From Escherichia coli (lineage in GTDB: Bacteria; Pseudomonadota; Gammaproteobacteria; Enterobacterales; Enterobacteriaceae), in assembly GCF_030013205.1 (NCBI RefSeq), contig NZ_CP122648.1: DNA of 64,000 nt, one strand, 5' to 3'. The position numbers and the translations under genes are program-made. Positions 20,053-21,661 of this stretch are shown here, in pieces. Every line of letters starts with the position of its first letter. Positions within the stretch are counted from its first letter, which is position 1. The notes beneath the pieces were generated by a model that was given only the letters and a program-made list of their open reading frames with translations, made no database searches and was not told the origin of the DNA.

Positions 20053-21276
20053 TCAGTTAGAGTCTGAGATAGTACAAGTAATGATCGATTCAACTCTCTC
20101 CCACCATGCCTGGTAGGCTTTACGCTGTTCTTCTAGATAATCGCTCTTATCATAAACTTGCCATACCCCTGGCAGTTTATGGCCGAGCATTATTTCTGCA
20201 ATATGAGGCGCAGTAAGATCAGAAAAGTTTGTTCGTGCTGTTCGCCTCAAATCATGAAGAGACCAATGAGGGAATTGATACCCCAAACGCCGCCATGCGT
20301 ACTGCATTAAATTGTAAGGCAGCGACTGCAATGATGTTCGTCCAACGGGTTCCCTGCTTCCTTCCTTAGTAAAAAGCATATCGGAACCATTGTTCATAGA
20401 GATAACGTACTTTATAAGCTCTTCAACCGGTTCAATAATGGGGCGCTTTAGCGGTTCGCCTGTTATATCCCCTGTCTTATGTCGTTCTGGCGGTACAGTC
20501 CATACCTTATTAATGAAATCAAAATCATCCACCCTAGCGGTAATTAGCTCTGAACTACGGCAGCCAAAATGCAGCAATAGTTTAATGAAGGCCCGGTATT
20601 TAGGAACCATTCGAGAACCATCGATCGCAGCATAAAGGATTTTAATTTCATCATGTGTCAGAAACCGTTTCTTCTGACCTTTACGGATATCCATATCTTT
20701 ACCCGTGATATCCGACAGCGGGCGGGTTTCAATGAGCTTTCTCTTATAGGCCCAGACATGGGCCTGCTTTGCGTTAATTAGCAATCGGTCTGCTATTGCT
20801 GGAGTCTTAGTGCTAAGAGGCTCTAAGACTTCTAACCAATCATGCAATGTAGCTGCATCGTGAGGGATACTCCCGATTTTAGAGAACAGGTGCAGCTCAA
20901 ACGAGCGGAGTATCTGTTCAGAACCTTTTTTATTTTTTACACAATATGCTTCATACCAGGCACGGATCACAGACTCTACCGTCATGGCTTCAGTAGCTTT
21001 TCGTTTTTCAGCCTGCTTGACCAATCGTGGATTACGGTTTGACTCGAGTTCACCACGAAGACGGAGAACTTCTTCTCTGGCCTCTTTTAATCCAGTTGCC
21101 GGGTAAGTTCCGATATCAAGACGCTCACCTTTCCCTGCCCATTGATAACGATATTGGAACACTACGCGACCTTTCGGTGATACTCTGACAGACAGACCAT
21201 CACGATCGGATTTAACCAAAACCTTATCACGTTCCTTTCCAACGACTGAACGCAACCACGCATCAGACAGCGCCAT
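20053..21276 (-). CDS. int: Tyrosine integrase (P4/CP4-57-type phage integrase)
   Basis: 407 aa; C-terminal catalytic region with HDLRRTARTNF and ...VWQVYDKSDY; adjacent to the prophage-host junction. Confidence 0.85.
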   Translation of the reverse strand: MALSDAWLRSVVGKERDKVLVKSDRDGLSVRVSPKGRVVFQYRYQWAGKGERLDIGTYPATGLKEAREEVLRLRGELESNRNPRLVKQAEKRKATEAMTVESVIRAWYEAYCVKNKKGSEQILRSFELHLFSKIGSIPHDAATLHDWLEVLEPLSTKTPAIADRLLINAKQAHVWAYKRKLIETRPLSDITGKDMDIRKGQKKRFLTHDEIKILYAAIDGSRMVPKYRAFIKLLLHFGCRSSELITARVDDFDFINKVWTVPPERHKTGDITGEPLKRPIIEPVEELIKYVISMNNGSDMLFTKEGSREPVGRTSLQSLPYNLMQYAWRRLGYQFPHWSLHDLRRTARTNFSDLTAPHIAEIMLGHKLPGVWQVYDKSDYLEEQRKAYQAWWERVESIITCTISDSN

Positions 21277-21496
21277 TACTCACCTTGTACAAATCGCAAA
21301 ACACCTCTGCTGCTTTGTACATTATGTACAAGTATATGTACAGATTTTTGATGAAAGCAAGCTGATCGATTTAAAGTTACATGAAAGAATTTTCAATTAA
21401 AGAAGCCACATAACCAAATGTATTTAAATGAGTTATATAGCTCAACCTCAATTAACTGAAAGGATTTTGAAAGAGTAAAAGAGCTTTAATTTGGGC

Positions 21497-21571
21497 TTAA
21501 TTATTGGGGTGAGAAATAATGGCAAAAGTGCGGCGCTTCGCCACCTCTTGCAAATAAGGAGACAACGTCAT
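21497..21571 (-). pseudogene. prfC: prfC 5' fragment: native start and first 23 codons of peptide chain release factor 3, then prophage sequence
   Basis: Reverse complement reads ATGACGTTGTCTCCTTATTTGCAAGAGGTGGCGAAGCGCCGCACTTTTGCCATTATTTCTCACCC = [22 protein letters not shown], then NN-stop instead of DAGKTT. Confidence 0.8.
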
Positions 21572-21661
21572 AATTCTTTCTTCTTGAGTAAGCGGCATCG
21601 CGCCGCGCTTGTTGAAAACGAAAAATTGCGGCTATTTTACCCATCAACGGGGGGGAGGCAA

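Follow-up and report, generated by a model that had tools for sequence, protein, structure and literature searches.

The prfC arrangement described here is already known and is common in E. coli (Ogura 2007, PMC2323221; SXT/R391; PMC8138268). For an Stx1 phage at prfC, Ogura 2007 described a swap of the N-terminus of release factor 3 (RF3), gave prfC as non-essential and left open whether the gene is expressed in such lysogens (PMC2323221). SXT is reported to drive prfC, the element supplying both the promoter and the N-terminus (PMC8409611, citing Hochhut & Waldor 1999). Smyshlyaev et al. 2021 placed the cdtI and SXT integrases in one cluster by their common prfC target (PMC8138268), and Bobay 2013 put prfC among the genes disrupted by prophages (PMC3603311). 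At another housekeeping gene, Gifsy-1 is reported to leave the function of lepA unchanged (PMC4632033). The prfC site is used by Stx1a, Stx2c and Cdt-I converting phages, and its signature is useful for typing the prophages of pathogens.

The window analysed here, a 64,000-nucleotide stretch of E. coli DNA (contig NZ_CP122648.1), carries a junction of this kind between an integrase gene and yjjG. We conclude that it is very probably the attL of a defective lambdoid prophage belonging to the cdtI/Stx1a/Stx2c prfC-integrating group. The present understanding of site-specific integration is unchanged by this finding. What is added is an argument from synonymous divergence for continued RF3 expression, and a layout that recurs across the integrase clade, the latter as a lead and not as a result.

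The prfC junction and the reconstructed integration

A tblastn search of the window with RF3 gave a sole match at 21571..21503, and the body of prfC was absent from all 64 kb. The match lies in an orphan ORF of 24 codons, prfC' (21497..21571, minus strand), which opens with an ATG at 21571, continues through 22 native RF3 codons and closes with AAT AAT TAA, down to 21497. In its reading frame (ATG ACG TTG ... CAC CCC AAT AAT TAA) the final Asn-Asn-stop is phage-encoded, and phage sequence already supplies the third base of codon 22. An earlier note, made from the sequence of the window alone, had proposed that a prophage sits inside the 5' coding region of prfC and leaves the native start and 23 codons, after which the sequence diverges into two asparagines and a stop. 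The start and the divergence are as described, and the native codons number 22. The 110 nt upstream and the first 22 codons are 100% identical to the yjjG-prfC region of K-12, and identity ends directly after ATTATTTCTCACCC, which bears out the proposed position of the prophage. Because this host identity extends over both the stub and its upstream region, the fragment is host DNA and not a phage mimic.

Five sequences were lined up: the uninterrupted yjjG-prfC locus of K-12 (attB), the window (attL), the far junction of strain ETEC4069 (attR) and the phages cdtI and Ayreon (attP). This comparison defined the core as a 14-bp sequence, ATTATTTCTCACCC, at 21507..21520 (minus strand), in agreement with the junction near 21500 that had been suggested. 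Positions above 21520 are host DNA, and those below 21507 are phage DNA. The core encodes Ile-Ile-Ser-His-Pro (prfC codons 17-21), immediately ahead of the P-loop DAGKTT. Upstream of the stub is the native, now orphaned prfC promoter-like site, TTGCCT-16-TAAAAT (21634..21661, minus strand), which scored 9 of 12 in a consensus scan, is the same as that upstream of prfC in K-12 and lies directly after the stop codon of yjjG, the latter gene ending at 21662. Beyond yjjG are rimI, holD, rsmC and then three tRNA-Leu(CAG) genes at 24625-24947. The genes rsmC, holD, rimI and yjjG separate this array from the junction. The tRNA array is not the attachment site, as the earlier note had also held. An Rfam search of 19000-25500 at a permissive threshold matched only tRNA-Leu and naRNA4/REP elements, with no known RNA or riboswitch at the junction. 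The matches to naRNA4, a REP-derived nucleoid-associated RNA, lie at 24327-24477, between rsmC and the tRNA-Leu array, and one of them is above the gathering score (70.3 bits).

The alignment reproduces attB x attP = attL + attR exactly, with identity switching on either side of the core. The free phages cdtI and Ayreon carry, ahead of the core, an imitation of the prfC start with an ATG of its own, and 8-10 nt upstream of this ATG is a purine-rich stretch. As attR is located 3.3 kb outside the window, it was taken from ETEC4069, whose genome matches the window without a difference over 22 kb. In that genome the prophage runs 3.3 kb past window position 1 to attR and prfC, and the rest of prfC is thus found where it had been expected, beyond the far prophage end. 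The phage-supplied start that had been suggested as something to look for at this junction is present. The far-end prfC encodes 528 aa, is annotated as an intact RF3 and is one residue shorter than the native protein. Its first 16 codons and its ribosome-binding site come from the phage, and presumably its promoter does too. The join of a phage-supplied 5' end to the prfC body at attR was seen in K_EC180 as well as in ETEC4069.

The arrangement is frequent. Among 5426 complete E. coli genomes, the int-yjjG junction (attL side) was present in 698 and the junction of the phage arm with prfC (attR side) in 686, so that about 13% carry it. The exact hybrid RF3 is found on at least 1000 contigs, whose sources name it release factor 3. 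Its occurrence in 698 finished genomes means that the junction is not an assembly artefact.

The reconstruction shows that the integrase recombined the 14-bp phage core with the identical sequence in host prfC codons 17-21. The recombination split prfC, with the native promoter, ribosome-binding site and 22 codons staying beside yjjG as the orphan ORF. The body of the gene was joined, at the other end of the prophage, to the phage-borne imitation of the prfC start, giving an RF3 of intact length. With the phage-borne start translated and the gene transcribed from the phage arm, host RF3 would not be lost on lysogeny.

The integrase, its presumed arm sites and the orphaned prfC promoter-like site

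The integrase gene (20053..21276, minus strand) encodes a tyrosine integrase of 407 aa, as judged by Pfam, PHROG (phrog_1), tblastn against phages and an identity matrix. The protein has the domains Arm-DNA-bind_3 (PF13356, residues 3-90), Phage_int_M (PF22022, 101-192) and Phage_integrase (PF00589, 205-379), that is, the arm-binding, core-binding and catalytic domains of a heterobivalent tyrosine integrase of the lambda/P4 type. Convergent with int is a gene for a 64-aa excisionase, Xis (17835..18029, plus strand), which matched phrog_1553 with an E-value of 2.6e-34 and NCBIfam excisionases weakly. The AT-rich P' arm of the att site (21277..21506, minus strand) contains four TGTACA motifs, which start at 21286, 21316, 21325 and 21337 and lie close upstream of int (21286-21342). 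The 561-bp attP of cdtI contains eight of them, four per arm, compared to 0.12 expected from the window frequency, a 65-fold enrichment. A motif of the TGTACA type was also found in relatives from Vibrio, Pseudomonas, Moraxella and Acinetobacter and in the SXT/R391 element R997. The motifs are presumed to be arm-type integrase sites on both sides of the core, and the integrase would bind the core together with these flanking repeats.

The earlier note had placed the integrase gene co-directional with the orphaned prfC promoter and had raised the possibility of read-through. The orientation is confirmed, as the promoter-like site shares its strand with both the orphan ORF and int, and int begins 220 nt past the orphan stop. 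Once the phage is circular, this position upstream of int is taken by its own prfC-type start region. Taken together, the two layouts put int behind a prfC-type start region in both the circular and the lysogenic state. It is possible that transcription from the orphaned prfC promoter enters int. A stronger version of this reading, in which the orphaned host promoter is a significant driver of int in the lysogen and the regulation of a host translation factor is thereby wired to prophage recombination, appears to us rather unlikely. It is favoured by the short co-directional spacing and by the spacer itself, in which a pattern scan and an RNA fold found no canonical intrinsic terminator between prfC' and int, the fold giving only an AT-rich hairpin (z-score -2.0). 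Also in its favour, a sigma-70 consensus scan of the arm found no strong int promoter, with matches at only 7-8 of 12 positions, and the layout is kept in the relatives from Vibrio, Pseudomonas, Klebsiella/Gifsy-1, Moraxella and Acinetobacter. Plain inheritance, however, could account for a common layout. R997 uses the same prfC codons but has int reversed and xis co-directional, showing that a co-directional int is not required at the prfC site. Furthermore, the 220 nt left untranslated after the early stop would permit Rho-dependent termination, and Int without Xis excises no prophage.

RF3 in lysogens

Across EVAKRRTFA, the phage mimic and host prfC differ at 8 of 27 nt, and all eight differences are synonymous. 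When eight substitutions were drawn at random 200,000 times in a simulation, the peptide was never kept (P < 1e-5). Since the integrase needs just the 14-bp core, the best explanation for synonymous-only divergence is selection on the phage segment as a part of RF3. This suggests that RF3 is made in lysogens.

A reading opposed to this is that lysogens lose prfC function. The phage-borne start would then be a by-product of the integrase's need for homology, and the gene would be silent for want of its authentic promoter and ribosome-binding site. The promoter-like matches upstream of the phage-supplied prfC start are indeed weak, with no strong sigma-70 consensus in the scans and 8 of 12 as the best match. 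Ogura 2007 left expression open and prfC is non-essential (PMC2323221), so that intact ORFs alone are no proof of expression, and Bobay 2013 lists the gene as disrupted (PMC3603311). Against loss, although the identical core spans just 14 bp, the RF3 peptide is preserved in the mimic through eight synonymous differences, and the mimic comes with its own ATG and purine-rich stretch. An independent mimic in SXT/R391 keeps the RF3 residues with yet other codons, and SXT is reported to drive prfC (PMC8409611). Lastly, the hybrid ORF is intact on the contigs, at least 1000 in number, that carry it. We consider functional loss very improbable.

Our preferred reading is that RF3 continues to be made, and the synonymous-only divergence provides indirect evidence on the question raised in 2007. 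For annotation, the prfC' stub beside yjjG and the 528-aa RF3 at the far end are best treated as the halves of one normal integration, and prfC is not to be scored as disrupted, though one large survey did so (PMC3603311).

The DinI-like gene of the prophage diverges from the phage-supplied prfC start. Upstream of it, two LexA-box-like palindromes of the form CTGT-N8-ACAG were found by eye (ETEC4069 L003 6040-6110). SOS control of the intergenic region between the DinI-like gene and prfC could touch prfC expression in lysogens.

The least credible alternative, and one we dismiss, is that the 22-codon match is phage-borne or that mis-assembly separated an intact yjjG-prfC, both of which the earlier note had named as possible refutations: phages do carry a prfC mimic, but one of different sequence and length that is located at the other junction, whereas in the window copy the 22 codons and the 110 nt ahead of them match K-12 at 100%, and the same junction in 698 independently finished genomes rules out an intact prfC next to yjjG in a corrected assembly.

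The prophage and its relation to known elements

Positions 1-22000 of the window are 100% identical to the porcine enterotoxigenic E. coli strains ETEC4069 and ETEC4079 and 99.98% identical to K_EC180. From the identity to ETEC4069 and its annotation, positions 1..21506 are the part of the defective lambdoid prophage that falls inside the window. In ETEC4069 the element measures 24,842 bp from core to core (L003 cores 5841-5854 and 30683-30696). The gene order in the identical genomes starts with osmY, prfC, the DinI-like gene, a SLATT protein with a reverse transcriptase, tail fibre genes and lom. A truncated tail-tip gene, lysis genes, tRNA-Gly, Q, a truncated rusA and cro/cI-like genes follow, and then yfdPQR-like genes, a DUF4365 gene, int, a 69-nt pseudo-CDS and yjjG. 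The annotation of the identical element in ETEC4069 contains no head, portal, capsid or terminase genes, and the lack of head and terminase genes identifies it as a defective lambdoid remnant. It is not a complete inducible lambdoid genome, being 24.8 kb in length compared to about 47 kb for cdtI and having only partial tail-tip and RusA genes.

Between xis and int is a gene for a DUF4365 cargo protein of 339 aa (18762..19781, plus strand; RefSeq annotation of the identical genome), with a weak PADLOC match to the REase-like domain of an Argonaute-associated protein (E 5e-7). This slot is variable, with different occupants in other strains, where Dsr1, AIPR, CHAT, DUF262 or methyltransferase genes are annotated in this prophage region, and a 2.1-kb unknown ORF in cdtI, and it looks like a cargo or defence hotspot. 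Further cargo, a SLATT protein and a UG17-class reverse transcriptase, lies beside the DinI-like gene at the prfC-proximal end (ETEC4069 L003 6593-8492), about 0.7-2.6 kb before window position 1 and next to attR. PADLOC assigned these genes to RTasSLATT (E 8e-57) and RT_UG17 (E 6e-159), that is, to a DRT-type anti-phage system. The prophage also contains a tRNA-Gly(UCC) gene (8254-8328, minus strand), between the lysis genes and an AraC-family gene. The ORF at 6093-6686 (plus strand) is probably the gene that the identical genome lists as lipopolysaccharide core heptose(II)-phosphate phosphatase, another piece of prophage cargo, close to the lysis genes.

Proteobacteria widely carry homologues of the integrase at 50-57% identity. 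The integrase gene of Vibrio diabolicus comes after rimI and a stub, that of Pseudomonas comes after a stub, and both have GTACA repeats before int. The layout is constant among the relatives: the host stub runs into a stop within 1-4 codons, and int follows about 200-260 nt later. In Gifsy-1 and a Klebsiella prophage, whose integrases are 46-47% identical to that of the window, the stub is MKNIRNFSIIAHID followed by N and a stop, and the target is lepA. In Moraxella phage Mcat15 (41%) it is MMPTPSHLTTISIIGHT followed by NDDI and a stop, in the gene for a small GTPase that when uninterrupted continues NVGKTSLL...DTPG. The Mcat15 record ends inside the prophage, and its target was read from an uninterrupted Moraxella genome. 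An Acinetobacter relative (45%) has the stub MALIVQK followed by N and a stop, after alaS, and from this start the target is probably aspartokinase.

The Gifsy-1 type (lepA of Salmonella and Klebsiella) is like the window in that the 5' stub ends one codon past the core, int lies about 210 nt downstream and is co-directional, and the attP of Gifsy-1 carries a phage-borne copy of the target's N-terminus. Its core occupies the corresponding position in a paralogous translational GTPase (FSIIAHID vs FAIISHPD; ATCATTGCTCACAT vs ATTATTTCTCACCC). Unlike the window element, it targets lepA and has the arm repeats GGACA/GTCCA, not TGTACA. Three of the four targets are lead-ins to a GTPase P-loop, namely FAIISHP before DAGKT in RF3, FSIIAHID before HGKS in LepA and ISIIGHT before NVGKT in the Moraxella GTPase. 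The three cores, ATTATTTCTCACCC, ATCATTGCTCACAT and ATCATCGGACACAC, have in common the DNA pattern ATY-ATY-NNN-CAC. The idea that the whole clade targets such lead-ins was weakened to these three of four by the probable aspartokinase stub of Acinetobacter. Only tentatively do we suggest, from sequence comparison, that each member of the clade (about 36-57% identity) may have as its insertion site the first 7-22 codons of a conserved housekeeping gene, for which it carries a replacement start, and that att specificity may have moved between paralogues by following conserved coding sequence. A neighbour-joining tree of eight integrases would fit a single clade, though it is too crude to order events or to say if prfC targeting is ancestral. 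A literature search found no paper linking lepA, prfC and these integrases.

The closest described systems are the prfC-integrating lambdoid phages cdtI (NC_009514), Ayreon, 2H10, PhiR63_1 and the Stx1a/Stx2c phages of O103 and CC119. Their integrases are 97-98% identical to that of the window (98.3-98.5% at the amino acid level over the full length for cdtI itself), and the DNA of int and the P' arm is 96-97% identical (96.8% for cdtI). At 95-99% DNA identity, the integrase gene occurs in 33 phage records, including cdtI, Ayreon, 2H10 and Stx1a and Stx2c converting phages. These phages also have the attP core ATTATTTCTCACCC, the phage-borne prfC start and the order int, variable cargo and convergent xis, and the N-terminal swap of RF3 published for them matches the window element (PMC2323221). 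In contrast, the window element is a 24.8-kb remnant with no cdt or stx genes, and its cargo consists of the DUF4365 protein and, at the attR end, the system of UG17 reverse transcriptase and SLATT protein.

More distant are the dusA-specific elements such as IMEVchUSA3, for which the likeness was shown experimentally with lacZ fusions (PMC8409611). They differ from the window element in target, integrase lineage and element type, and are likened to it from the published description.

The SXT/R391 element R997 (NZ_KY433363) integrates at the same prfC codons, with a related core, ATYATYTCCCACCCTGA, over IISHPD. It too brings an element-borne RF3 start, and its GTGTACAAA repeats on both arms resemble the TGTACA motifs of the phages. 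R997 is recorded as a circular plasmid (PLSDB), and joining the ends of this record duplicates two Ile codons (ATCATC/ATTATT) at the att core, a duplication that probably arose when the record was trimmed. In contrast to the window element, R997 is a conjugative element and not a phage, and its order is attP-xis-int, with int towards attL and xis co-directional with the orphaned prfC promoter. IntSXT is 99% identical among the member ICEs compared (PMC2791158), whereas the window integrase is 38% identical to that of R997. The identical element in ETEC4069 is annotated with lambdoid phage genes and cargo only, and not with the SXT/R391 backbone (tra, setCD, setR). At the att site the window element thus works as SXT/R391 does, but the 38% integrase identity, the absence of a conjugation backbone and the reversed orientation of int place it outside that family.
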